DNA of 57,405 bases from positions 1 to 57,405 of IMG/VR virus record IMGVR_UViG_3300045988_073597; one strand, given 5' to 3'. Positions 128 to 52,422 of this stretch are shown piece after piece; position 1 is the stretch's first letter, and every line of letters starts with the position of its first letter. The notes beneath the pieces were generated by a model that was not told the DNA's origin, did no database searches, and saw nothing but the letters and a program-made list of their open reading frames with translations. Source of the stretch: a virus. The translations under genes were made by a program, and so were the position numbers.

Positions 128-147
128 GTACCAATTCCGTACCAATT
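128..147 (+). promoter_or_regulatory. Two GTACCAATT repeats 11 bp apart (candidate integrase arm-type sites, attP left arm)
   Basis: gtaccaatt at 128-136 and 139-147, same motif and orientation as the copies at 57215-57264, immediately 3' of the integrase gene. Confidence 0.4.
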
Positions 148-1273
148 ACACCACTTTTAGGTAATTTTCAAGCTTCAAAATTTCCATTTCGTTTGCTTCT
201 TCTGTTGTATGAACGTATAAGTTCATTGTTATTGTTATGCTAGAATGTCCAAGGATTGTCTGTAATGTTTTTGGTCTTATTCCTGCTTCAATACACCTAG
301 TGGCATAAGTGTGTCTCAGCGAATGCATAGAAAAAACATCCACGTTATATTTTTTACAATAAGCTTTCAATAACGTATTAAGTGAACTTCTAGTATTCAA
401 AACACCATGCGTATTTAAAAAAATATTATTTTTATATTTCAAACTAATTACTTTTAATTTTGCATTTTTTTCTTTTTGTGCAACAAGCAACTTCTTTGCT
501 TCTTCTGTCAGCGGAACAGCCCGTATACTTGTTTTCGATTTTGGTGTTCCGACTTTTATTTTTTTGTCTGTGTCCTGAAATAATGTTTTGTTTACGCATA
601 TTTTATTTTTTTTAAAATCAACATCATCCCACGTCAACGCAAGAATTTCGCTAACCCTCATGCCGGTCTGTAACGCAAATGCAAAAAAATTGTAATTCGC
701 AGTATTTTTTGATCTCTCAAGAAAATCTTTTTGCTCCTGCACCGTCAAAAATCTTATTTTTGGTTCTTCTTCCACTGGTATTTTTACACTTTTTGTTACC
801 GGGTTAAAGGTTATAAAAGAATTTTCAACAGCGGATTCAAAAAAACCATGCATCACTTCACGAACACATTGCATAGTATTCTTTTTCATCCCATTTTCCA
901 ACATAACCTCAAATACTTCGCTGCAATGAATTGGTTTGACATCTTTAATCAACATATCTCCTATTACTGGCTTTATATGTCTTAACCATCTTGTTAAATT
1001 TGCACTCTGCGTGTTTGGCTTCCAGAACGGTTTTTTTAATTTTTCGTACCAGTAATTAAACCACGATTCAACAGTGGGATTATCTCCACGCAGAACATTA
1101 CCATGCTCTTTTTCAAACTGCATGTCTGATACCCACTTTCTACAATCCTGTAGTTTTTTAAAATTTTTAGAAATCCTTTTTCCATTGCGATCAGTTACTC
1201 TACCCATGTAAAATCCATCGGTTCTTTGAGAAATACCTATTCCAAGTTCTTTTCCTTTTAGGCTTTTTCCCAT
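146..1273 (-). CDS. int: Tyrosine recombinase (phage integrase)
   Basis: C-terminal catalytic signature (GMRVSEILALTWDDV ... HSLRHTYATRCIEAG ... LGHSSITITMNLYVH). ATG at 1273 preceded by AAGGGGTG. The ORF track begins at an upstream GTG (1282). Confidence 0.9.
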   Translation of the reverse strand: MGKSLKGKELGIGISQRTDGFYMGRVTDRNGKRISKNFKKLQDCRKWVSDMQFEKEHGNVLRGDNPTVESWFNYWYEKLKKPFWKPNTQSANLTRWLRHIKPVIGDMLIKDVKPIHCSEVFEVMLENGMKKNTMQCVREVMHGFFESAVENSFITFNPVTKSVKIPVEEEPKIRFLTVQEQKDFLERSKNTANYNFFAFALQTGMRVSEILALTWDDVDFKKNKICVNKTLFQDTDKKIKVGTPKSKTSIRAVPLTEEAKKLLVAQKEKNAKLKVISLKYKNNIFLNTHGVLNTRSSLNTLLKAYCKKYNVDVFSMHSLRHTYATRCIEAGIRPKTLQTILGHSSITITMNLYVHTTEEANEMEILKLENYLKVV

Positions 1274-1347
1274 TATTCGCACCCCTTTCTTTAAAAGAAA
1301 AAGCCTTAATACAGTAATTTCATATTACTACATAAGGCTTTAAAAGT

Positions 1348-7537: not shown

Positions 7538-8284
7538 TTAAAATGGTGCAACACTTGGATTGTGTAGTTCCCATTCTTTGCATGGCTCTGCAACGTCCAC
7601 ATTTGACTGTATAGCAACTTTTTTCATTTGTTCGATAAAGTTATCCTTATCTGCATTTTCTCCTGATAAATGGCACATGATTACGTTCTGAACATCATCT
7701 GGCGAATAATTTGCTTCAACAAATTTACAAGCCGTATCAATGCTCATATGACCTCTGAGAACATGGCTTGCTTTTGCCGGATTGTTCATATCAACCATGT
7801 TTTCGTCGTAGTCAACACCAAGCAAAATGTGGTTTAAATCATCGAATCTCCATTTAACAAATTCAGTGTCAGTCACATACAGAAGCTTTCCCATTTCTGG
7901 ATGCGATATAACATATCCATAGCAAGGGCATTCACTTCCGTCTGCGTTTGTGTGCGTCCATTTTCCATCTTTCGTAGTAAGTTCAAATGCAATCACTCGA
8001 AATCTTGTATGGTCGAAATAGAGCCTGACAAGTGAATATTCGTCATTGGACAAGTATGGTGTTGCTACTTTTATTCCGATTTTTCTTAAATCGTAAACAG
8101 ATTTGCTATGATCTCCATGCCGATGAGTGACTATGCACCCAACCACATTTTTAATATTCCAATCCAACCCTTTTTTGATTTCAGAAATCGGAACACCACA
8201 ATCAAGGATAAGTGCTTCGCCATTGCTTGCTGTGAGTAAATGGCAGTTTCCAGAACTTCCAGTTCCTATCGTTCTCAAAAACAT
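7538..8284 (-). CDS. Metallo-beta-lactamase-fold hydrolase (possible nuclease)
   Basis: THRHGDH motif (HxHxDH) in a 248-aa protein. Confidence 0.75.
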   Translation of the reverse strand: MFLRTIGTGSSGNCHLLTASNGEALILDCGVPISEIKKGLDWNIKNVVGCIVTHRHGDHSKSVYDLRKIGIKVATPYLSNDEYSLVRLYFDHTRFRVIAFELTTKDGKWTHTNADGSECPCYGYVISHPEMGKLLYVTDTEFVKWRFDDLNHILLGVDYDENMVDMNNPAKASHVLRGHMSIDTACKFVEANYSPDDVQNVIMCHLSGENADKDNFIEQMKKVAIQSNVDVAEPCKEWELHNPSVAPF

Positions 8285-8859: not shown

Positions 8860-9612
8860 TTACTCACCTTTCATAAAATCCGGCATAGAGTTCTCTGGTT
8901 CTGCTGCCACAACTTCTGCATCAGCTTCAACAAATTCAACGCTGTTTGCATTTTTGGAAATGTCGTTCTGCACCTGTGCCTGCAATTCATCCATAGAAGA
9001 ATATTCTTTGAAGTCGTTATCCTGCATTTCCTCTCTTGTATACAATCCCATTGTCAACTCTGGGCAGTTAAGGCTTGAGAAGAATGATGCGGCTCTGTAT
9101 CTAAGCATAAGCTGTGGCATTGTTTTCCACTTGCTACCGTTTTTTCCAAGCCATCCCTCCGCTTTTGCCATATCCATGTCAACGGTCATGCCCTCTACTT
9201 TTCTGCCGTTTTTCGTAGTCCAGGCAAGGCAAGAATACGGTTTGCCGGAGTTATCTTTCTTTTCCTCGAACTGCAATTCCATGTCGAATTTTCCAGAATT
9301 ATTAATTGCTGCAATCAGAAATTTTGAACTCCATGACGGTCTACCCTGAATCACATAAAGATTCTGCATAACCATCAAAGGACTTACTTTAAGTCTCTGT
9401 GCCTGTTCAATGGCGATCAGACAGTTTGCATCATTCTTCTGGAAGGTAGATGGTACGATCGTTGAACTCGAAAGTGCTTTTGCCATCTGCATCGCCATAA
9501 TAAAGTTGTCTGATGTGCCAAAGATGCCAAGACTATAATCGGTTACTTTGTTATTATGTGCTGCCACTTCTTTTTTTTCTTCATTTACTGCCACTGCTGT
9601 GTTTTCTGCCAT
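8860..9612 (-). CDS. recT: RecT-family single-strand annealing recombinase
   Basis: QRLKVSPLMVMQNLYVIQGRPSWSSKFLIAAINNSGKF...MPQLMLRYRAASFF is typical of RecT. Confidence 0.85.
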   Translation of the reverse strand: MAENTAVAVNEEKKEVAAHNNKVTDYSLGIFGTSDNFIMAMQMAKALSSSTIVPSTFQKNDANCLIAIEQAQRLKVSPLMVMQNLYVIQGRPSWSSKFLIAAINNSGKFDMELQFEEKKDNSGKPYSCLAWTTKNGRKVEGMTVDMDMAKAEGWLGKNGSKWKTMPQLMLRYRAASFFSSLNCPELTMGLYTREEMQDNDFKEYSSMDELQAQVQNDISKNANSVEFVEADAEVVAAEPENSMPDFMKGE

Positions 9613-10136
9613 TATTTCATACCTCCGATTGTGATGTTAATTAATAAATGCAATGCTTCATTTTCTGTAAATCCTGCATCAACAAAAGATTTATAAAGTT
9701 TGTATACTTCTTTTGCTGCATCATTAATGCTATTATCTGCTTTTGGCTCTGAACTGGTTAACCGTTCAAATGCCAATCTGGCACCAATGTTGAAATCAAA
9801 TTTATCTTCCGGATTACAACGTGCAATGGCTTTCTTTCCTGTCGATTTATCAAGTGCAATCACCTGTCTATCTTTTTTGTAAATAACGATGGTTTCTGGT
9901 GCTATCTTTTCAATATTAGCTTTGTTCACATATAAGCACTGTTTGCCAGAAAGATGCGTTCCATCAATATCCTTGTCGTACATAGTTCCATTACCGCCAT
10001 CATGGAAGTCATCAAATTTTACTAAACAGTCAGTTTTGTATTCGAATATGACGGTGCCAGGTTTACCCTTAATATCGTATGTTGTTAAAAAATCGTCTTT
10101 AACTTTCACTCTGTCTCCGATTTTAAATTTGCTCAT
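9612..10136 (-). CDS. Hypothetical protein directly downstream of the RT
   Basis: ATG at 10136 (MSKFKIGDRVKVKDD...) preceded by GGAGGTAC; overlaps the RT stop by 14 nt. Confidence 0.6.
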   Translation of the reverse strand: MSKFKIGDRVKVKDDFLTTYDIKGKPGTVIFEYKTDCLVKFDDFHDGGNGTMYDKDIDGTHLSGKQCLYVNKANIEKIAPETIVIYKKDRQVIALDKSTGKKAIARCNPEDKFDFNIGARLAFERLTSSEPKADNSINDAAKEVYKLYKSFVDAGFTENEALHLLINITIGGMK

Positions 10137-11154
10137 GTTTGAGTACCTCCTTAACATATAAATCCATTGAATGACATAATTTAATGCAATTACCATGCAT
10201 TGCATGATTTTTCCAAGCATTATATTTTTCATAAAATTTTTGCTCTGACATTTTGTCAGAATTGACAAGTTTCGCCCAAACTCTAATCTTTTTTCGTATT
10301 CTTCTTTTGTTTACGCCATTCAATTTTCTTATGTATTTTCCGTCTTTTGTTATGTAATGATGAAAACCTGTAAATAACAGTCCGTTTTTAAATGGAATTA
10401 TTTGTGTCTTACCGTTAAGCGATAAACAAAGGCTATTCACGAATTGTTTTATACATTCAAGACACCACTTTAAATATTCCTTATCGTGATGAATTAAATA
10501 GAAATCATCCATGTATCTTCCATATAGTTCTATGCCTAATTCGCCAGTCGTAAAGTGATCTAATCCATTCAGAATAAGCAATGCATATACCTGTGCGGCC
10601 TGATTACCAAGTGGAAGCCCAATACCATCCGTGCTGTCAATTAACAAATGATTTAACCATTGCGTATAATCATCTTGGAAATAATAATCAACAACATCTT
10701 TTAAAATATCGTGATCTATTTGATAGAAAAATTTTGTAATATCACATTTTAAAATCCAGCCATCAATTCCATGTTGATTATAAAAATCCAACATTTGCTC
10801 TTTTAAACAATCCATTCCAAAATGTGTACCTTTTCCTATCTGCCCGGCATAATTAGTTCGAATAAATTCATTTGCTAATTTTAGATGCAACAAATTATCG
10901 CATAAGCAATGCTGTACCACTTTATCTTTAAATGAGCAGGACTTAATCACTCTTTCTTTAGGCTCATATACCTTAAATTCATTGTACGGATTCATCCGGT
11001 AAGTCTGATTTTCAAGCTGCTCTTTCAAAATGTGTAATCCCTCAAGATTCATTGTTTGAAATTTAGCACTGCTGCCATTAAATCCTTTGCCTGCTTTAGC
11101 TTTCTTATAAGCTTTATACAGGTTTCCAAAATCACATATAATATCTTTATCCAT
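10123..11154 (-). CDS. DGR reverse transcriptase
   Basis: YMDD box (YGRYMDDFYLI), LPLGNQAAQ motif, N-terminal NLYKAYKKAKAGKG; adjacent TR and avd. ATG at 11154 is preferred over the GTG at 11199. Confidence 0.9.
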   Translation of the reverse strand: MDKDIICDFGNLYKAYKKAKAGKGFNGSSAKFQTMNLEGLHILKEQLENQTYRMNPYNEFKVYEPKERVIKSCSFKDKVVQHCLCDNLLHLKLANEFIRTNYAGQIGKGTHFGMDCLKEQMLDFYNQHGIDGWILKCDITKFFYQIDHDILKDVVDYYFQDDYTQWLNHLLIDSTDGIGLPLGNQAAQVYALLILNGLDHFTTGELGIELYGRYMDDFYLIHHDKEYLKWCLECIKQFVNSLCLSLNGKTQIIPFKNGLLFTGFHHYITKDGKYIRKLNGVNKRRIRKKIRVWAKLVNSDKMSEQKFYEKYNAWKNHAMHGNCIKLCHSMDLYVKEVLKHEQI

Positions 11155-11262
11155 TGTAAAAAATCCTTTGTATTTATCCTTTTCGGAATGGTCATGCACT
11201 TTTTTGTATCTTTTTCTGATTTCGGCTTATTGCCTACTCTTACTACCTGTATGATACAGAAT

Positions 11263-11326
11263 GGGCGAACACCGTTGTTGTTGTTACAGTTGTTGTTGTT
11301 GATATTGCCGGACGGAGAAACAACGG
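11263..11326 (-). repeat. DGR template repeat (TR)
   Basis: In coding orientation it reads ccgttgtttctccgtccggc-AAT ATC (AAC)4 TGT (AAC)4-ggtgttcgccc. It matches three VRs, differing only at TR adenines, and is non-coding between avd and the RT. Confidence 0.9.
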
Positions 11327-11351
11327 TTTATACAGTACATAACCAGTAAAA

Positions 11352-11723
11352 TTATCTGCTTTTATCTTTCGTTCTCCAAGCAATCGCCATATGCTTGATA
11401 TCCGAAACCATTTTTGACCAATATTCCATACTTCTTGTGTTGATAATATTCAGTTTCATTGATAACTCAATGTAAAACAGAAGTTCATCACAGTGAGTTA
11501 TGGCTTTAGTCTGTAATTCTGACCGCTCTCTCCGGTAATACTTCAAATCGGTTCGATTTGCTTCATACAGATATTCATAGATTTCAAGTGCCTTATTCTG
11601 CATTTTGTCTACCAGTGAAAATCTGTATTTCTTTGGATATCTATTGCAATTTGAAGTTACACGCAATGTATGTTCTGCCAGATCTTTTGCTTTCAAAATT
11701 ACTTTTAAGTCTGATTCGGCCAT
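11352..11723 (-). CDS. avd: DGR accessory variability determinant (Avd, four-helix-bundle family)
   Basis: 123-aa basic helical protein (LAEHTLRVTSNCNRYPKKYRFSLVDKMQNKALEIYEYLYEANR) placed between the target genes and the TR. Confidence 0.75.
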   Translation of the reverse strand: MAESDLKVILKAKDLAEHTLRVTSNCNRYPKKYRFSLVDKMQNKALEIYEYLYEANRTDLKYYRRERSELQTKAITHCDELLFYIELSMKLNIINTRSMEYWSKMVSDIKHMAIAWRTKDKSR

Positions 11724-11727
11724 TTAC

Positions 11728-12324
11728 TTATTCCTCTGATTCAAAGATTGAAGATGAAAAGATACAAACCGGGCGAACACCGCGGTTGCGGTCACAGAAG
11801 TTGAAGCAGATAAGGCCGGACGGAGAAACAACGGCGACTGTCGATTTATAATTATTGCAAGGTGTGCTCCACGGTGTAATGAGCCACCACCATTCATCAG
11901 TATTCGGAATGAATTTTCTGTATTTTCGGTATTCGTCAACCGTCAAAAGAGATACAAAATCATCTGTTTCTCCATACTCCGTCTGTCCATCGAGTGATAA
12001 TAAATTTCTTTTGGAAGAAATTATATTCTCTCTTCCGACTTCTCTGGCGATTTTTTCATAAAACTCATTATTCAGATATTCTCTCAAGCTGCTTTCATTC
12101 CAGTCACTTGAGTTTTCATCAAACTTTTTATCTCCTAATGAGTCACCAATGCACATATATCCAGCATCCGTAATATCAAGGATTTTCCAGTTTATGTCTG
12201 CAAGTTCAAATTCATCTCCGATTTTTAATCCTTTCGGAATATGTATCACACCTATCTTTTTCTCAAGTGCTTTAACTCTGCCGAACAATTCTGAAATATC
12301 ATTTTCTGTAATTTTCTTTCCCAT
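11728..12324 (-). CDS. DGR variable protein 1 (DUF6273/DUF1566-like, C-type-lectin-like C-terminus)
   Basis: WWWLITPWS...VVSPSG[variable]GVRPVCIF; VR1 lies 43 nt from the stop. Confidence 0.85.
   Translation of the reverse strand: MGKKITENDISELFGRVKALEKKIGVIHIPKGLKIGDEFELADINWKILDITDAGYMCIGDSLGDKKFDENSSDWNESSLREYLNNEFYEKIAREVGRENIISSKRNLLSLDGQTEYGETDDFVSLLTVDEYRKYRKFIPNTDEWWWLITPWSTPCNNYKSTVAVVSPSGLICFNFCDRNRGVRPVCIFSSSIFESEE
11771..11834 (-). repeat. DGR variable repeat VR1
   Basis: 64 nt aligned to the TR without gaps; 13 differences, all at TR adenine positions. Confidence 0.9.
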
Positions 12325-12326
12325 GA

Positions 12327-12926
12327 TTACTTATCCCCTTTCGATACAAAGATATTAGATTTTAAGATACAAACCGGGCGAACACCGCTGCTGCCGTTAC
12401 AGTTGAAGCAGATAAGGCCGGACGGAGAAACAACGGCGACTGTCGATTTATAATTATTGCAAGGTGTGCTCCACGGTGTAATGAGCCACCACCATTCATC
12501 AGTATTCGGAATGAATTTTCTGTATTTTCGGTATTCGTCAACCGTCAAAAGAGATACAAAATCATCTGTTTCTCCATACTCCGTCTGTCCATCGAGTGAT
12601 AATAAATTTCTTTTGGAAGAAATTATATTCTCTCTTCCGACTTCTCTGGCGATTTTTTCATAAAACTCATTATTCAGATATTCTCTCAAGCTGCTTTCAT
12701 TCCAGTCACTTGAGTTTTCATCAAACTTTTTATCTCCTAATGAGTCACCAATGCACATATATCCAGCATCCGTAATATCAAGGATTTTCCAGTTTATGTC
12801 TGCAAGTTCAAATTCATCTCCGATTTTTAATCCTTTCGGAATATGTATCACACCTATCTTTTTCTCAAGTGCTTTAACTCTGCCGAACAATTCTGAAATA
12901 TCATTTTCTGTAATTTTCTTTCCCAT
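12327..12926 (-). CDS. DGR variable protein 2 (paralog; first 172 aa identical to protein 1)
   Basis: Same N-terminal 172 aa as 11728-12324; differs in the VR; its tail is identical to that of protein 3. Confidence 0.85.
   Translation of the reverse strand: MGKKITENDISELFGRVKALEKKIGVIHIPKGLKIGDEFELADINWKILDITDAGYMCIGDSLGDKKFDENSSDWNESSLREYLNNEFYEKIAREVGRENIISSKRNLLSLDGQTEYGETDDFVSLLTVDEYRKYRKFIPNTDEWWWLITPWSTPCNNYKSTVAVVSPSGLICFNCNGSSGVRPVCILKSNIFVSKGDK
12376..12436 (-). repeat. DGR variable repeat VR2 (one codon shorter than the TR)
   Basis: 61 nt; 10 substitutions, all at TR adenines, plus a 3-nt gap next to the invariant TGT codon. Confidence 0.85.
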
Positions 12927-12928
12927 GA

Positions 12929-13531
12929 TTACTTATCCCCTTTCGATACAAAGATATTAGATTTTAAGATACAAACCGGGCGAACACCGTTGAAGTTGAA
13001 ACAGCTGAAGCAGTTGACATCGCCGGACGGAGAAACAACGGACATGCTATACTTTAATCCTCTATCAGCAGTAGACCACGGTGTGCATGTCCACCACCAA
13101 TCATCCAGATCTTTGTTTACAATCAAATTGTTGAATCTTATAACCAAGCCAAAATTCGGCGGCATAACTTTGGCTCTACAAGGCTCAAATTCTTTCTGGT
13201 TATCAACAGAAAGAAGACTATTATCGTATTCAACAAGATTTTCAACCCCAACCTCAGATTCAATAACAGGCTGGATGCATTTTTCGATAACCTTTTTCAG
13301 ATTCGATTTATTGTAGTCTCGTGTATCTTCATCAAACACGACATTTTCCGCCATAAATCCTTTTGAGATCACGGTTGTCGTATCAAAATCATGTTTAAGA
13401 ACAATAAAATCATGTTCGCCGATTTTAAATACATCGCCTGGATCAAGTTCTGAAAGTCTGACCTTTTTTGCGTTTTCTGCTTCTTCAAGTCGTTTAACCA
13501 ATTCTCTTGCAAGTTCTAACTCTTTACTCAT
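12929..13531 (-). CDS. DGR variable protein 3 (diverged paralog)
   Basis: DDWWWTCTPWS...VVSPSG[variable]GVRPVCILKSNIFVSKGDK; ATG at 13531 preceded by GAGGG. Confidence 0.85.
   Translation of the reverse strand: MSKELELARELVKRLEEAENAKKVRLSELDPGDVFKIGEHDFIVLKHDFDTTTVISKGFMAENVVFDEDTRDYNKSNLKKVIEKCIQPVIESEVGVENLVEYDNSLLSVDNQKEFEPCRAKVMPPNFGLVIRFNNLIVNKDLDDWWWTCTPWSTADRGLKYSMSVVSPSGDVNCFSCFNFNGVRPVCILKSNIFVSKGDK
12978..13041 (-). repeat. DGR variable repeat VR3
   Basis: 64 nt; 11 differences from the TR, all at TR adenines. Confidence 0.9.
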
Positions 13532-13532
13532 T

Positions 13533-14075
13533 TTATTTTCCCTCACTTTTCTCAAATATTTTTAACTGTTCTGCCAGTTTTTTACATTCATCAGAAACAT
13601 ACTGTTCTGTTCTGACGACCTCGTCATTGGCCGGATATTTTCTTTCAATATCAATCTGTATTAAAAGCGGTATCCTGTATTTATGAAATGTCTTGCAGGC
13701 AAGTTCCAACTCTTTTCCGTCACCATAATGCCCGCAGTCAAAACCGAACCACCACAGATCACTTTTGATTGGATATTCTGAGTTTTCCCCACCATCAGAA
13801 TATGTAATTCCACCATGCACTTGAAAAAATGCTTCAATGCGAACTCTTTCATCTGAATCAAGAAGCATACCTAATAGTGGAAAAATACCGCTTACTTCTC
13901 TATCTTCAATGTCTCTTTTGTTGATTTCGAGATAATCACTGTACTTTTTGCCATATAATGGATGGCTTTTGTGAACTCCTACATATCCGCACCGATAACC
14001 ATATGCACCGAAAATAACAACACATTTATATCCATCATGTTCAAATTCATTTTCTACAATATATCTATCGCCCAT
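13533..14075 (-). CDS. Hypothetical protein
   Basis: 180-aa ORF, translationally coupled to the upstream ATPase gene. Confidence 0.6.
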   Translation of the reverse strand: MGDRYIVENEFEHDGYKCVVIFGAYGYRCGYVGVHKSHPLYGKKYSDYLEINKRDIEDREVSGIFPLLGMLLDSDERVRIEAFFQVHGGITYSDGGENSEYPIKSDLWWFGFDCGHYGDGKELELACKTFHKYRIPLLIQIDIERKYPANDEVVRTEQYVSDECKKLAEQLKIFEKSEGK

Positions 14076-14076
14076 A

Positions 14077-16002
14077 TCATCCCTCCAATACAGACAATTT
14101 GTTGCCGTCTGTTACTTCAAGCATGATTAGCTGGCAACAAACAGATTTTGAAACCCGTTCTTTGTTGCTAACATCCAATGATTCAGAATCATCCAGAAAC
14201 ACAGGCACGGATAAATCATTGATTTTCTGAATCGAATTGCAAATATCAACCTTTCCGATGATCTGATTTCCTTTATTGCTCATTGTTGAAATAATTGATT
14301 TTCCATCAATAGCAGGTATGCATACTGATTTGTAACCACCAGATTTATTCACTTCAAACAGCTGCCACTGAACGGTTTCAAAATGTTTGTTTATTTCGGC
14401 AGATAACTTCTGATTTTTAGCCTTTTCCAGTTCGCCAAGCAAATAAAGAATCTTTTCTGCATCTGATTTTTTTTGCTCCATATCAATTCTACGATCACGG
14501 AGTTCTTCAAGACGCTGCTCGTCTGCGGATGTGTCGGACTTTGAAATCTGGCTTTCACATTCAGACAATTTTCTGCGTATCTCATTTTCTTCCAGCTTCA
14601 ATTGACCACGCATGTCATCAACTTTCATTGATTTCTGCATTTCTGCTTCTTTTTCATCAATCTCAGCAGACAGTTTTTTGTATTCATCTGTATCTGAAAT
14701 ATCAACAAGTTTCGGGATTGCATCTAACTGCTTGTGATATTCGTCCAGTTTTGAAAGCACTGAATTGAGCTTTTTCATATTCTCTTCTGCCACAGATTCA
14801 AGTTCTGCAAGAACTGGTTTTGATTTCTCAATTTCCTCTCTTAACGCAGTTCCTTTTGCTTCGATTTCACAAAGCCGTTTCTTCTTGCTTTCCGCAAACT
14901 CTGAAACAAGGCGTTTAATTTCTTCGTCTGGCAAGTCTCTGTGGCATGTCGGACAAATGGTTGAGTTATAATCGAATTTTTCATTGTTGACAGCTACCCA
15001 CTTCTTTGCCAACAGTTCTCTGGCAGAATCTTTTTCACTGATCTCTGACTTAATCCGGTCAACAGCAACTCCATTTTTTCTGATTTCCTCATGGATAGAA
15101 TCTACAAATGCGTTTGCATCGTTGATTTTGTGCTGCATCTCACGGATTTTATTCAAATTCGCGTCATTAGCTTGTGTCTGTAATCCGCTCAGCTGAAATT
15201 TCAGTTCCAAAATCCCATCTGCTTTTTTCTGGATATCTTTTTCCAGTGCTTCTGCATCTGTCTGCTTCTTGACGTTACAAGCCAACTGCTCAGACAGCGT
15301 ATTTTTCAGAAGTTCCAGTTCTGCCACATCAACGTCTGATTTCAACTGAATGTCACGCTGTTTTTCTTTGATTTGCCCGTCAATGACAGGCAAATCCTTT
15401 TCGATTTTTGATTTTGTTGCCTTATTCATGGCAGTTAATTCATCATCAGAATATTTTTCAAGCAAACCTGTAATCGCAGAAAGTTCAGCATTTTCTTTTG
15501 CCACGTCCAGATCATTGACATTTTCAACCAGTCCAAACAGATAGCTTCTCATATCTGCTGTTTTCTGATTAAGAAATGCTCCCGGACTGCTGCACATTTT
15601 CAACAAATTCATATCGATCTCAAAATACTCATTAAATGCTTTGAGAGTTTTTGGAACTTCGTTGATGAAATATGTGTTGTCATCTGAATATCCGACACCA
15701 TCTTTTTTGTATTTGCGTTTCTGGACCTTTCTGGCAGTCACTTCCTTACCATCAATATCCAATACGGCAGTAACCGAAACGTCCATGTCGTCTACTGACT
15801 TACCACCAACAACTCTTCGTACTGCCGGATTATCCTTTAACTGGTAATCACATCCGAACATCAGCCATGTATAGGCTGTGGCAATAGTTGATTTACCGAT
15901 TCCGTTTCTACCGGCCACTACTGTTCTGTTGAAAAAATCAAACTCGGCATGTGGGTATGCCATGAAGTTATCAACAATGAGTTTTCTCAATACAATTTTC
16001 AT
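14077..16002 (-). CDS. Rad50/SbcC-like AAA ATPase with coiled coil and CxxC zinc hook
   Basis: Walker A GRNGIGKST; long coiled-coil middle with CPTC at its centre; C-terminal VFLDDSESLD Walker B/D-loop. Confidence 0.75.
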   Translation of the reverse strand: MKIVLRKLIVDNFMAYPHAEFDFFNRTVVAGRNGIGKSTIATAYTWLMFGCDYQLKDNPAVRRVVGGKSVDDMDVSVTAVLDIDGKEVTARKVQKRKYKKDGVGYSDDNTYFINEVPKTLKAFNEYFEIDMNLLKMCSSPGAFLNQKTADMRSYLFGLVENVNDLDVAKENAELSAITGLLEKYSDDELTAMNKATKSKIEKDLPVIDGQIKEKQRDIQLKSDVDVAELELLKNTLSEQLACNVKKQTDAEALEKDIQKKADGILELKFQLSGLQTQANDANLNKIREMQHKINDANAFVDSIHEEIRKNGVAVDRIKSEISEKDSARELLAKKWVAVNNEKFDYNSTICPTCHRDLPDEEIKRLVSEFAESKKKRLCEIEAKGTALREEIEKSKPVLAELESVAEENMKKLNSVLSKLDEYHKQLDAIPKLVDISDTDEYKKLSAEIDEKEAEMQKSMKVDDMRGQLKLEENEIRRKLSECESQISKSDTSADEQRLEELRDRRIDMEQKKSDAEKILYLLGELEKAKNQKLSAEINKHFETVQWQLFEVNKSGGYKSVCIPAIDGKSIISTMSNKGNQIIGKVDICNSIQKINDLSVPVFLDDSESLDVSNKERVSKSVCCQLIMLEVTDGNKLSVLEG

Positions 16003-20715: not shown

Positions 20716-21696
20716 TTAGTCAATATGAACTTTTCCATTTACAACCTTGCAGGTCGCATCTCCGGTGTAGTTAAAATCAACAGCCCCGTTGAGCACAAGC
20801 CAGATTCCTTGGTCATTCTGAACCAATCCAGTATAGCTAAAATCAACAGCTCCATTCTTCAGATAGAACCATCCATTCTCGTTCTTCGCCAGACCGTTAA
20901 AATCAAAATTTACTTTTCCGTTTTCGATTCTCCACCAGCCGTTTTCATTCTGAGCAATTCCGGTGTAGCTAAAATCAACAGCTCCATTGGTTACCTTCCA
21001 CCAACCATACTCATTCTGGGCTACGGTATTTGCCCCGAAATCAACCGCACCGTTCCGGACATACCACCAGCCATTCACGTTTTGCGCAAGCCCGGTGTAG
21101 TATGCCGCTACCTGGTTGTCTTTGTAATAGTACCAGTTTCCGTCAGCGGCTGGCTGATTGGCAAGACCGTCTGGAATACTTGGTTGCGTCAGTCTACCGT
21201 GAAACTCCTGCTCCCAGAGTGCATCATCCACCCAGTAGGCCGGGCATGGCTTTCCGTTGACGTCATAGTGCCGGATTACACGATCAACCGGGACGTTGTA
21301 TTTGCTCATCAGCTCTTTTACAAGATCAAGAGCGTTGTTGATCGTCGCTTCTGTTGCTTTTACTGTTCCATTTTTTGTCGTGTCGCACAGCTCCACGTTC
21401 AGCGTGTTTGCATTTTTCGCAATACCATACAAACGTCCACCGCCATTGTTGTACTTTCTTCCACCAACAGCCCATGCAACACGATCGTCTGGAACCGAAT
21501 GCACTACAGTCGTATCATCCACGAAATAATGTGCTGATGCCTTCCTGTTTTCACCTTGAAAATATTTACCGTTATTTTCTGCTGTGTCTCCATCATTACT
21601 TGTAAAATGCACTGCGATATATCCGATGCTGTGCAATGCTCTATACGCTCCGTAGTTTGTTTTAGAAGCCCACATTTCCTTTAATACATAAGACAT
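20716..21696 (-). CDS. Endolysin: N-acetylmuramoyl-L-alanine amidase with C-terminal choline-binding-type cell-wall repeats
   Basis: Amidase_2-like N-terminus (AVHFTSNDG...ASAHYFVDD...NVELCD...RHYDVNGKPCPAYW); about seven ~20-aa GW..NG.VDF repeats. Confidence 0.85.
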   Translation of the reverse strand: MSYVLKEMWASKTNYGAYRALHSIGYIAVHFTSNDGDTAENNGKYFQGENRKASAHYFVDDTTVVHSVPDDRVAWAVGGRKYNNGGGRLYGIAKNANTLNVELCDTTKNGTVKATEATINNALDLVKELMSKYNVPVDRVIRHYDVNGKPCPAYWVDDALWEQEFHGRLTQPSIPDGLANQPAADGNWYYYKDNQVAAYYTGLAQNVNGWWYVRNGAVDFGANTVAQNEYGWWKVTNGAVDFSYTGIAQNENGWWRIENGKVNFDFNGLAKNENGWFYLKNGAVDFSYTGLVQNDQGIWLVLNGAVDFNYTGDATCKVVNGKVHID

Positions 21697-46981: not shown

Positions 46982-47071
46982 TGGAAAAGGTTGGAATTGA
47001 ACCAACAACGTTTACCACATGGGAACGGTTTTACAGACCGCTGTAGCACAACCAATAGCTACCTCTTTTCC
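46982..47071 (-). tRNA. tRNA-Tyr (anticodon GTA) with long variable arm
   Basis: Hand-folded. Acceptor ggaaaag/cttttcc, D stem gtag/ctac, anticodon stem gcggt/accgt, loop ctGTAaa, T arm gttgg-ttcaatt-ccaac. Confidence 0.75.
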
Positions 47072-47162
47072 GTGTGCATTTCTGCAAAAGCAGCATTTTT
47101 TTAATTCAAGTGGATTTCTGCCACCAACACTCTATCCGGTCGCTATCCGGAATATTTGAATG

Positions 47163-47345
47163 TAAGGACTTGCACCTTATTAGAGCCCATCTTCCAAGAA
47201 TCGAACTTGTCTTGCTTGTATATCGCAAGGTCACCAGACATCCGGAATCGAACCGGACTAAGCACTTTGCCATTCAACACCTACGGTTGCCACCAACGTC
47301 TGACATTCATCTACCAGCATTACCACTTGCAAGGCTTTGAACATT
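47163..47345 (-). other. Cluster of degenerate tRNA-like fragments (at least three T-arm-like hairpins without complete cloverleaves)
   Basis: T-arm-like elements: taagg-tgcaagt-cctta (47163-47180), caag-ttcgatt-cttg (47197-47214) and tccgg-ttcgatt-ccgga (47241-47257). I could not fold canonical anticodon or D arms around them. Confidence 0.4.
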
Positions 47346-47351
47346 GGTCAA

Positions 47352-47425
47352 TCGGAATGGTAGGATTCGAACCCACGACCAACTGTGTATAAGACAGGTG
47401 CGCTAACCAACTGCGCTACATTCCG
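47352..47425 (-). tRNA. tRNA-Ile (anticodon TAT)
   Basis: Hand-folded 74 nt. Acceptor cggaatg/cattccg, D stem gcgc/gcgc, anticodon loop ctTATac (27:43 C-U mismatch), T arm gtggg-ttcgaat-cctac. Confidence 0.7.
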
Positions 47426-47498
47426 ATACCGGGCAAATTTATTTTCGCCCGGTACAACACATATCAACAGAAAGGATTGAACTCTATGAAAAGTCCAA

Positions 47499-47569
47499 TG
47501 GCTGCAACAGGACTTGAACCTGTTCCTCCAAATGTGCGCGCTGTGTGCTTTCCGTTACACCATGCAGCC
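47499..47569 (-). pseudogene. tRNA-like element with intact acceptor, D and T arms but no foldable anticodon arm
   Basis: Acceptor ggctgca/tgcagcc, D stem gtgt/gcac and T arm acagg-ttcaagt-cctgt are intact. The region where the anticodon arm should be (cagcgcgcacatttgga) does not pair. Confidence 0.5.
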
Positions 47570-47622
47570 TTGTTTGCATACATTTCAGTGCGGTATGCAA
47601 GCGCACAACAAGAGGTGTAAAA

Positions 47623-47690
47623 ATAGGGATGCCACTCATGCCATCTGTCCGATGGCTAATCCCTACACAACATTTGACCGCTATGTAGGG
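47623..47690 (-). promoter_or_regulatory. Attenuator-like element: mutually exclusive hairpins, the 3' one followed by a U-run
   Basis: On the minus-strand RNA, ccctaca (47690-47684) can pair with tgtaggg (47667-47661). The overlapping tagggat (47665-47659) can instead pair with atcccta (47630-47624), which is followed by TTTTT. Confidence 0.4.
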
Positions 47691-47748
47691 CATATCTTTT
47701 ATAACAAGGAGAAATAAATATATGGGATTTTCGGATATACATCCCAAA

Positions 47749-47819
47749 CTAGGGTAATCGGAATCGAACCGATGACCACGGAGTCAAAATCCGTTGCGCT
47801 ACCACTGCGCCATACCCCA
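47749..47819 (-). tRNA. tRNA-Gln (anticodon TTG)
   Basis: Hand-folded. Acceptor tggggta/tacccta, D stem gcgc/gcgc, anticodon stem acgga/tccgt, loop ttTTGac, T arm atcgg-ttcgatt-ccgat. Confidence 0.75.
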
Positions 47820-51725: not shown

Positions 51726-51983
51726 ATGAGAAACGAAACAGCAGCAGAGAAAGAAAAAAGAGTGTTTGAATTTTATAAAAAGGATCTTGAAAGGATGGGG
51801 GAGGAAATGGGACATGTCAGAATGATCGTAATTGAATACGTTTGTAGCTTTCCCAAAATTAATCCGTACAAAATGGCAGCATCAATTGTTTTAAACGGGT
51901 TTAAAGTGGTTTTTGATGATTCCAGCATAAGCCAGAAAGAAAACGAAAAAAAGCGGAAAGCAGTTGAAAAGCTGGCAGCATAG
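51726..51983 (+). CDS. Hypothetical protein
   Basis: ATG at 51726 after AAAGGATGG (the track ORF starts at 51705). Confidence 0.5.
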   Translation: MRNETAAEKEKRVFEFYKKDLERMGEEMGHVRMIVIEYVCSFPKINPYKMAASIVLNGFKVVFDDSSISQKENEKKRKAVEKLAA

Positions 51984-52060
51984 CCGAAACGCTCCAGATC
52001 GGAGCGTCAGCCGTGGGACAGCCTCCCGGCTCTGATGATGGTAGGCTAGAAAGGGGAAAA

Positions 52061-52198
52061 ATGGATAGAGAAGAACGTCACAGCTTGGAAAGCATTGTAT
52101 TTGCTTATCTTGTCGGGGAAATGGGAATGGAGCCGATAAGAGCAAGAAAAACAGTTGAAAATATGACAGATGCAGAAATCGAAATTTTTTTTGAATAA
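52061..52198 (+). CDS. Small hypothetical protein
   Basis: ATG at 52061 after AAAGGGGAAAA (the track ORF starts at a GTG at 52013). Confidence 0.4.
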   Translation: MDREERHSLESIVFAYLVGEMGMEPIRARKTVENMTDAEIEIFFE

Positions 52199-52422
52199 TG
52201 GAGGATATGAAAATGAGAAAAATAAATATTGACATGTGGTATAATGACAAGCCGGAACAGGTGACAGGATTAGACATATATTTTAATGATTTAGTCGTCT
52301 TTTATTCCGGAAATCTTCGCATTTTTGGAAAAATTGTTGGTGATTATTACGCCGACAGCGTGCAAGACATAGAAAAAGCATTTCCACACCTTGCGAAATA
52401 TATTGAAAACTGTTTGAATTAG
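52198..52422 (+). CDS. Hypothetical protein
   Basis: 74-aa ORF with several candidate ATGs (52198, 52207, 52213) after GGAGGA. Confidence 0.5.
   Translation: MEDMKMRKINIDMWYNDKPEQVTGLDIYFNDLVVFYSGNLRIFGKIVGDYYADSVQDIEKAFPHLAKYIENCLN

Follow-up and report, generated by a model that had tools for sequence, protein, structure and literature searches.

The window analysed here is the whole of a 57,405-nucleotide (nt) stretch of viral DNA, IMG/VR record IMGVR_UViG_3300045988_073597. Its minus strand carries, at 10123-13555, a diversity-generating retroelement (DGR) composed of a single non-coding template repeat (TR), the accessory gene avd, a gene for a reverse transcriptase (RT) and three target genes, each of which contains a variable repeat (VR). 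A first-pass annotation made from the letters alone had proposed a complete DGR with one TR and three targets at this site; every component was tested and found, and all six features lie in the order that it gave, target3-target2-target1-avd-TR-RT. The features are listed below (aa, amino acids; IMH, initiation of mutagenic homing).

12929-13531, minus strand: target3, 200 aa, a diverged paralogue; the open frame is 12929-13555, with a probable ATG at 13531
12978-13041, minus strand: VR3, in target3; variable block 12989-13021
12327-12926, minus strand: target2, 199 aa
12376-12436, minus strand: VR2, 61 nt, one AAC codon short of the TR; variable block 12387-12416
11728-12324, minus strand: target1, 198 aa, DUF6273 / C-type-lectin fold
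11771-11834, minus strand: VR1, encoding target1 residues 171-181; variable block 11782-11814
11352-11723, minus strand: avd accessory gene, 123 aa, pI 9.4
11263-11326, minus strand: TR, 64 nt, non-coding, 19 adenines
11274-11306, minus strand: 33-nt adenine-rich block of the TR, AAT ATC AAC x4 TGT AAC x4
11253-11262, minus strand: TR-specific 3' flank ATTCTGTATC, IMH*-like, three positions unlike the VR flank GGTTTGTATC
11155-11262, minus strand: spacer (Sp) from the TR to the RT gene, non-coding, highly conserved, structured RNA
10123-11154, minus strand: RT gene, DGR reverse transcriptase of 343 aa from the ATG at 11154; the open frame extends to a GTG at 11199 (358 aa)

Two ORF (open reading frame) starts call for small corrections, the GTG at 11199 for the RT gene and position 13555 for target3. 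The RT gene most likely begins at the ATG at 11154, with AAAGGA before it; 10 of 11 other assemblies read have the gene at this length of 343 aa. The start of target3 is most likely the ATG at 13531.

Adenine-confined divergence of the variable repeats

The window contains exactly four copies of a 20-nt core, CCGTTGTTTCTCCGTCCGGC, all on the minus strand (at 13041, 12436, 11834 and 11326). One copy lies near the 3' end of each target ORF and the fourth lies in the non-coding stretch that constitutes the TR. The 64 nt of the TR comprise 19 A, 21 C, 14 T and 10 G. By eye, 13, 11 and 10 substitutions had been counted in VR1, VR3 and VR2, all of them on TR adenines, and a computational alignment tabulated by TR base returned the same numbers: the 34 VR substitutions all hit TR adenines, the 45 non-adenine positions being untouched. 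Substitutions at non-adenine positions, which had been named beforehand as the result that would count against a DGR, are thus missing from all three VRs. The spectrum is A>T 17, A>G 13 and A>C 4, and each of the 19 adenines is altered in at least one of the three VRs. Were substitutions uniformly distributed, the probability of striking adenines only would be 2e-9 for VR1, 1e-7 for VR3 and 6e-7 for VR2. VR2 is indeed one codon shorter, as had been proposed; its alignment needs a 3-nt gap (one AAC codon) inside the AAC run, and the best eight gap placements listed all give zero non-A mismatches. When the TR pattern with its adenines masked was run over the 57-kb window, the matches were the TR, VR1 and VR3 alone, and there were no matches in 100 shuffles. 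A DGR is expected to pair a non-coding TR with VRs that differ from it (almost) only at TR adenines, and this is the arrangement found.

The adenine-templated codons of the TR are AAT, ATC and eight AAC, with the adenines at codon positions 1 and 2. The block can specify 4^19 different DNA sequences and, for each target, about 1.5e11 different peptides; a fixed Cys (TGT) stands mid-block, and codons of the form NNC or NNT cannot yield stop codons.

The RT has many relatives, 574 in IMG/VR and 393 in a species-representative genome collection, the closest genomes being those of Agathobacter and other Lachnospiraceae, and an assembly collection has 393 blocks with exactly this Avd protein. A family of 81 loci, consisting of 80 IMG/VR loci and the window, was compared. 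Two VRs are present in 69 of the 81 and three only in the window and in one other locus (L065). Eleven other contigs with an identical Avd also have an identical TR, while their 20 VRs are all different, solely at adenine-templated positions. Two loci (L005 and L010) have a TR with non-adenine changes, and both of their VRs repeat them. In a set of 120 target1 homologues that share at least 74% identity, mean column entropy reaches 2.76 bits over the ten adenine-templated codons versus 0.37 elsewhere, and the mid-block Cys177 (TGT, with no A) is invariant. The window's own target1 and target2 have 589 bp in common without a mismatch and differ only inside the VR. On this comparative evidence information is transferred from TR to VR, and a reading of these sequences suggests that the DGR has probably been active recently in this population.

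About one in eight of the family VRs is shorter or longer than the TR of its locus by whole codons (-1 to +3, in the AAC run), in agreement with the slippage described by Wu et al. 2018. These VRs lie in loci L002, L015, L020, L023, L024, L030, L033, L039, L043, L048, L053, L054, L057, L060, L061, L072, L080, L163 and L169.

The 3' flanks distinguish donor from recipient repeats. VRs continue as cgccc-GGTTTGTATC and the TR as cgccc-ATTCTGTATC, followed by ctgtatcatacag; the sequences are as first described, IMH-like after the VRs and IMH*-like after the TR, and they may contribute to directionality. The distinction is kept across the family, with GGTT or ATTT after VRs and ATTC after TRs. A close relative (L003:186-392, IMG/VR 3300029480_000186) has a TR with A-to-N-like changes (CAATGTCAGCATCAACAACTGTTACTACGACATC) that keeps the TR-type flank ATTC; this TR may have been overwritten by mutagenised cDNA, or may be a chimeric assembly.

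Reverse transcriptase, Avd, template RNA and targets

The RT matches Pfam RVT_1 (E 3e-12) and PHROG 1423 (E 1.7e-91). Its best solved relative is 8ub7_A (E 1e-32), labelled in the fold search as the DGR ribonucleoprotein of a Bordetella phage, followed by a group II intron RT (1.5e-8) and a retron-type RT (9e-8). In the Bordetella phage RT (bRT), residues F66, R74, I76, I181, G182 and Q187 are reported contacts to the template and the incoming nucleotide (Handa et al., bioRxiv 10.1101/2023.10.23.563531). Five of these (F66, R74, I76, G182 and Q187), together with YMDD, are matched by identical residues in the window RT, and I181 is replaced by Leu. The YMDD and LPLGNQAAQ motifs picked out in the first-pass annotation are both present in the translation; LGNQAAQ aligns with the DGR motif IGSLTSQ of bRT, with Ala in place of Ser. 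The profile matches to PHROG 1423 and 8ub7_A support a DGR-clade RT, and its active site is intact. The closest annotated phage RT is that of nd12, at 49% identity.

It has to be asked whether the RT could belong to another class, that of a retron, a group II intron or a defence system, with the repeats being paralogous segments that diverged by point mutation or gene conversion. Matches of this kind do occur below threshold in NCBIfam: TIGR04416 (group II intron RT) reaches 86 bits where the cut-off is 300, retron St85 reaches 32 where it is 235, and the Drt models, Drt3a among them, lie far under their cut-offs. The bRT match is better by 24 orders of magnitude, however, and placement in a retron or group II intron clade is excluded by score. 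Rfam gave no match to intron domains or to retron msr/msd in the DGR region, and none of these RNAs was found in the window. Ordinary mutation, moreover, cannot give adenine-only divergence from a non-coding copy, as the per-VR probabilities of 2e-9 to 6e-7 indicate. The probability left to this explanation is practically negligible, and all three RT classes were rejected in favour of a DGR.

The accessory protein Avd, encoded beside the TR and RT, hits PHROG 3206 ('Avd protein of DGR') with an E of 7e-23, and its homologues carry the source names 'Avd-like protein' or 'four helix bundle protein'. Its AlphaFold2 (AF2) model is a four-helix bundle (pLDDT 89). In Foldseek the model aligns with Bordetella Avd (4dwl) and with the Avd chains of 8ub7 at TM 0.66-0.85 across chains, the best chain being 4dwl_D (TM 0.75/0.85, rmsd ~2 A). 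Together with the pI of 9.4, this bears out the earlier description of a basic 123-aa protein of four-helix type.

The RNA was studied in an alignment of the avd-TR-spacer region from 56 non-redundant relatives (RT identity ~50-96%). Its elements are as follows.

11334-11345, minus strand: 5' strand of a long-range helix, between avd and the TR and just before the latter; pairs with 11189-11200
11247-11259, minus strand: small hairpin CTGTATCATACAG, immediately 3' of the TR; seen in the sequence and in a DNA fold
11223-11234, minus strand: GGCAAUAAGCCG, which may form a 3-bp hairpin on its own or pair, as the spacer strand, with the TR 3' end (11274-11263) in a template:primer duplex
11189-11200, minus strand: 3' strand of the long-range helix, on the Sp side; counterpart of the avd:Sp 'cPRT Stop' duplex
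11172-11187, minus strand: short stem-loop UCC-GAAAA-GGA, then UAAA(U/C), directly after the long-range helix

The 12-bp long-range helix is predicted by RNAalifold, with 96% of cells paired and compensatory changes at 10 of the 12 pairs. Over the whole tested structure 97.6% of cells pair, versus 30-42% when the partner columns are slid by 1-3. A single-sequence fold of avd-TR-Sp yields the same helix at a z of just -1.25, and the helix is convincing only with the family alignment. The 3-bp stem-loop (11187-11177) has compensatory changes at two of its three pairs and 100% of cells paired, with a GNRA-type tetraloop in many relatives. The UAAA(U/C) that follows is near-invariant (AUAAA with the last stem base), and the invariant blocks of the spacer among the 56 relatives include AGAGTAGGC..GCCGAAAT and GATAAA. 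An upstream:spacer duplex, a short stem-loop and A-minor adenosines make up the 'cPRT Stop' of the Bordetella phage DGR, an element that Handa et al. (bioRxiv 10.1101/2023.10.23.563531) predict for 207 out of 278 DGRs of the Avd type. Covariation supports the structured RNA for the duplex and stem-loop, and for the upstream:spacer helix it provides a confirmation, independent and drawn from natural variation, of an element whose structural definition comes from a single proteobacterial phage.

A template:primer duplex and an Avd-binding hairpin are plausible further elements. RNAalifold pairs the TR 3' end CGGU...GCC (11274-11264) with the spacer GGC...GCCG (11234-11223) in seven canonical pairs with an internal loop, and by analogy this is predicted to be the template:primer duplex. 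The CTGTATCATACAG hairpin is placed like the Avd-binding stem-loop of other DGRs and is much shorter, which makes it a candidate for that function. At gathering thresholds Rfam reports nothing in the DGR region, its sole matches being tRNAs and a hammerhead in other parts of the window, and no Rfam family covers the TR/spacer RNA. A second long-range pairing, TGTATC (11253-11258) with GATACA (11205-11210), is complementary in the window and appears to be replaced by GUGG/CCAC in distant relatives; it is not claimed here, as the alignment is out of register in those relatives.

All three targets match PHROG 9958 (target3 at E 8e-25). Against Pfam DUF6273, targets 1 and 2 are over the cut-off (target1 E 3e-11) and target3 is just under it (E 1e-4). 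The AF2 model of target1 (pLDDT 93) has an N-terminal helix (residues 7-24) and a single globular domain, the Foldseek neighbours of which are the DUF6273 domain of a gut IgA peptidase (9qa6), the C-terminal domain of Legionella Lcl and C-type lectins, as well as many phage DUF6273 or 'receptor binding' proteins. The VRs encode a beta-hairpin near the C-terminus (residues 171-181 in target1) of these 198-200-aa proteins, so that each lies at the 3' end of a gene for a C-type-lectin-fold protein, as in other DGRs. The targets are acidic and have a short N-terminal helix. Target2 shares 187 of 198 residues with target1, and target3 only 73 of 198; an orthologue of target3 is the upstream target in most relatives. 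By analogy with Mtd and with published DUF6273 targets, their most probable role in the phage is the binding of a ligand or receptor; a rather improbable reading would make these small lectin-fold targets early, non-virion proteins. They do not have the tentaclin architecture (an N-terminal C-type lectin domain with the VR, then Ig-like domains and a C-terminal anchor motif), as they contain no Ig domains. Pfam, PHROG, PDB sequence and fold searches gave no match to Mtd with its beta-prism and beta-sandwich, the general C-type-lectin fold being shared. A different cassette order is seen in two loci (L151:8987-10834 and L152:8987-10834), in which a 616-aa DUF6273-containing protein is encoded downstream of the RT; the two versions differ essentially only in VR-like residues near ...GVRPLCNLKS.

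A working cycle can be proposed from these parts. A transcript of the avd end, TR and spacer would fold, the 12-bp helix evident from covariation joining the region upstream of the TR to the spacer and being followed by the small stem-loop and an A-rich tail. The RT-Avd complex would be expected to bind the folded RNA. If the analogy with the Bordetella phage DGR holds, cDNA synthesis would be primed at the G+C-rich 3' end of the TR, with misincorporation opposite the 19 adenines only, and would stop at the long-range helix. The predicted priming nucleotides are the adenosines that follow GCCG at 11220-11223, with TR position 11275 as the first to be templated, and the predicted stop lies just on the 3' side of the helix strand at 11334-11345. 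The cDNA would then replace the homologous 64-nt VR at the 3' end of each of the three targets, in the direction indicated by the comparison of repeats; the flank GGTT would mark VRs as recipients and ATTC would mark the TR as donor. In this way ten codons would be rewritten in the beta-hairpin of a C-type-lectin-fold domain.

Several observations weigh against so complete a picture. No Bordetella-type hairpin or cruciform was found downstream of the VRs: the DNA after VR2 and VR3 folds no better than shuffles (z +1.0), and that after VR1 forms a weak hairpin at best (z -1.6). Not all DGRs possess such a hairpin (Wu et al. 2018, PMC5758913). The profile search proposed for Avd was borne out by PHROG 3206 and not by NCBIfam DivGenRetAVD (E 1e-12) or Pfam bAvd, both of which matched below their cut-offs, and a sequence-profile search of the PDB with Avd returned no solved Avd, just spurious SRP68 and SLD3 at E >0.004. 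The pairing of the TR 3' end with the spacer shows no compensatory changes among the aligned relatives, and the one compensatory change in the local GGCAAUAAGCCG hairpin, in L145, favours that hairpin over template:primer pairing. The targets have no recognisable signal peptide or virion-attachment domain, and they sit in a recombination module (from an SbcC-like ATPase to RecT), not in the tail module.

The first of these points would also be explained if the DGR were decayed or frozen, with historical VR differences and information that is no longer mobilised. Inactivation does happen in the lineage: in one relative with identical Avd and TR (L167:4070-5100), the RT is split into ORFs of 227 aa and 116 aa by a frameshift or stop, and both VRs are fully diversified. 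In the window, by contrast, the RT and avd genes and the TR are all intact, residues for catalysis and template contact are kept, and there are zero non-adenine mismatches in 3 x 64 nt, mismatches that decay would add. Copies identical over 589 bp already differ at ~8 adenine sites and one codon, and near-identical phages all carry unlike VRs. Decay is for these reasons highly improbable, and the locus is very probably a DGR that functions or did so recently.

Origin of the third target

Self-comparison of the window revealed a perfect 589-bp direct repeat with a period of 602.

12401-12989, minus strand: upstream repeat copy, starting on the final base of the VR3 block and ending 16 nt inside the VR2 block
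11799-12387, minus strand: downstream repeat copy, starting on the final base of the VR2 block and ending 16 nt inside the VR1 block

Because the repeat runs from VR to VR, target2 is a chimera of the target1 body and the C-terminal tail of target3 (CILKSNIFVSKGDK), a structure which is the product expected from unequal crossover between two ancestral VRs. The first 16 nt of the variable block are common to VR1 and VR2, and the next 13 nt (12388-12400) are unique to VR2; since the two share those 16 nt, comparison does not tell which copy was rewritten. VR2 is the one with the missing AAC codon. The difference between VR1 and VR2 fits a later homing event with its 5' crossover inside the VR and slippage in the AAC run, both of which are documented for DGRs (Wu et al. 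2018, PMC5758913; PLoS Genet 2026). By the evidence of the repeat, the third target is a very recent tandem duplicate of target1 and not an independent gene. The family ancestor would have possessed two paralogous targets; unequal recombination between their VRs would have produced the 602-bp tandem duplication and hence target2, and a later partial homing event with AAC-run slippage would have rewritten the 3' part of one copy's variable block.

Such a structure could also arise within a genuine DGR as an artefact, if an avd-proximal target with a polymorphic VR were threaded twice through a cycle in the assembly graph. The 589-bp identity between the copies exceeds what typical short-read inserts resolve, hypervariable VRs amid identical flanks are known to tangle assemblies, and assembly error was suspected in an eight-target cassette (Wu et al. 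2018, PMC5758913). Three targets are found in none of ten other contigs with an identical Avd and in only two of the 81 family loci. On the other side stands an ENA scaffold of a different size (L161, 40.7 kb, ERZ28630137, sample SAMN18206697), which reproduces the layout with the same three genes and the same three VRs, encodes the exact target2 protein, and differs from the window by one SNP over 8.6 kb. The sole difference is at 11831, in the 5' constant part of VR1, where the window has T (GTT, Val) and the scaffold A (GAT, Asp); GAT is also present at this site in a further relative (L166). The change is at a non-adenine TR position and is therefore an ordinary SNP, not DGR-templated. The junction of VR2 with the target3 tail is novel sequence that was necessarily in reads (13 unique nt, 21 shared nt and tail-specific bases), and the chimeric body and tail are precisely as unequal crossover between VRs predicts. 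The other three-VR locus (L065) likewise speaks against an artefact, though its third VR lies ~1.8 kb upstream of the usual pair and not in tandem. An assembly artefact is an unlikely explanation that retains some weight, and the third target is probably real.

The first-pass annotation had called one TR feeding three VRs uncommon. It is rare, occurring in two of the 81 loci, and DGRs with more than two targets amount to ~2%, but three-target DGRs had already been documented. The duplicated target illustrates how a DGR target array could grow, with VRs supplying the homology for unequal crossover and the copies then diversifying separately.

Phage context and known systems

The host phage is a temperate siphovirus-like gut phage of Lachnospiraceae, as seen from the following features.

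146-1282, minus strand: tyrosine integrase, a temperate-phage marker
16974-17702, minus strand: anti-repressor, a temperate-phage marker
19432-19797, plus strand: HTH (helix-turn-helix) repressor, a temperate-phage marker on the opposite strand
20716-21696, minus strand: amidase endolysin with four choline-binding repeats
21787-44773: siphovirus-like structural module

In the family, the gene order is SbcC-like ATPase, (PHROG 2164 gene), target A, target B, avd, TR, RT, (174-aa ORF), and RecT or another protein. As a rule the DGR is thus set between the ATPase and a RecT-type annealing protein; in the window the SbcC-like gene is at 14077-16002 and RecT at 8860-9612, and this placement of the cassette may be functional. 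In distant members of the RT clade (L081-L151), the three ORFs after the RT are DNA-metabolism genes, not tail genes: REP_ORF2-G2P (10), SSB (5), Rad52 (4), N6/N4 methylase (4), C5 methylase (3), DUF1064 (3), ParB_N (3), Sak SSAP (single-strand annealing protein; 2) and ERCC4. A general DNA-metabolism context thus holds across the wider clade. A tight link between DGR and SSAP genes as a rule was rejected for that clade, in which Rad52 or Sak make up ~6 of 146 downstream ORFs. The synteny allows the speculation, itself rather improbable, that phage recombination proteins anneal the mutagenised single-stranded cDNA into the VR during retrohoming; if they did, a DGR working with recombination proteins would parallel in nature what recombineering does with a retron plus RecT.

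A gene for a 248-aa protein of metallo-beta-lactamase fold (7538-8284, minus strand) is found four genes downstream of the DGR. Its orthologues at the same position in relatives have weak or faint Pfam matches to Anti-Pycsar Apyc1 (PF23023), and it may be an anti-defence gene. Elsewhere in the window, Rfam reports a Hammerhead_II ribozyme at 51982-52050 on the plus strand (50.5 bits against a gathering threshold of 37, E 1.8e-7); the site is antisense to an ORF at 51891-52277 and on the strand opposite to nearly all phage genes. A tRNA cluster at 46982-47819 (minus strand) comprises, according to ARAGORN, Tyr(gta), Ile(tat) and Gln(ttg), of which Tyr is not reported by Rfam; a fourth, tRNA-like Rfam match (47499-47569, 42.7 bits) is not called by ARAGORN.

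A megablast search of 10000-13700 against the INPHARED phages gave no match, and the lineage therefore has no annotated close relative. The locus presents, in clean and completely resolved form, a DGR of a very abundant lineage of Lachnospiraceae phages, and hundreds of related contigs can be annotated from its targets, TR, VRs, spacer RNA elements and corrected starts. Multi-target cassettes, AAC indels, DUF6273 targets and the RNA elements are all already published, and the understanding of DGRs is unchanged.

The best-known relative is the BPP-1 DGR (mtd-avd-TR-brt), with which the window shares the gene order target-avd-TR-RT. Also common to both are a homologous RT (E 1e-32) with its template-contact residues, a four-helix Avd, adenine-only mutagenesis, a VR at the 3' end of a C-type-lectin-fold gene, TR and VR unlike in their 3' flank, and an upstream:spacer duplex followed by a short stem-loop and adenosines. 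The two differ in their targets: the window has three of ~200 aa, without the beta-prism and beta-sandwich of Mtd, whereas BPP-1 has one, a 381-aa tail-fibre tip protein. The TR is 64 nt in the window versus 134 nt in BPP-1, the spacer ~108 nt versus 140 nt, and the distance from the putative primer strand to the duplex strand ~23 nt versus 2 nt. Unlike BPP-1, the window has no evident long RT-binding stem-loop before the RT start and no cruciform-type hairpin after its VRs, and its cassette lies in a recombination module.

Closer counterparts to the targets are the DUF6273 'target2' proteins of the gut phages nd4 and nd12 and the small DGR targets of the Faecalibacterium phages Lelie and CP11 (PMC10743442, PMC11792537). 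These are the same small single-DUF6273 targets, with a C-terminal VR and short flanking helices, in multi-target cassettes of phages of gut Clostridia. Their partner target is a tentaclin or large protein, whereas the window targets are all small DUF6273 paralogues, and three targets that include a fresh duplicate are a feature of the window.

Multi-target cassettes constitute ~15% of DGRs, three-target examples are known, and more than two targets occur in ~2%; in-frame indels opposite AAC repeats have been ascribed to template slippage, and the 5' homing boundary is variable (Wu et al. 2018, PMC5758913). The window resembles these multi-target DGRs in its extra target, its AAC-run indel and its variable 5' homing boundary. 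Unlike those cases, it displays the origin of the extra target directly, in a 602-bp tandem duplication with its junctions inside VRs, and partial homing after the duplication can be seen as well.

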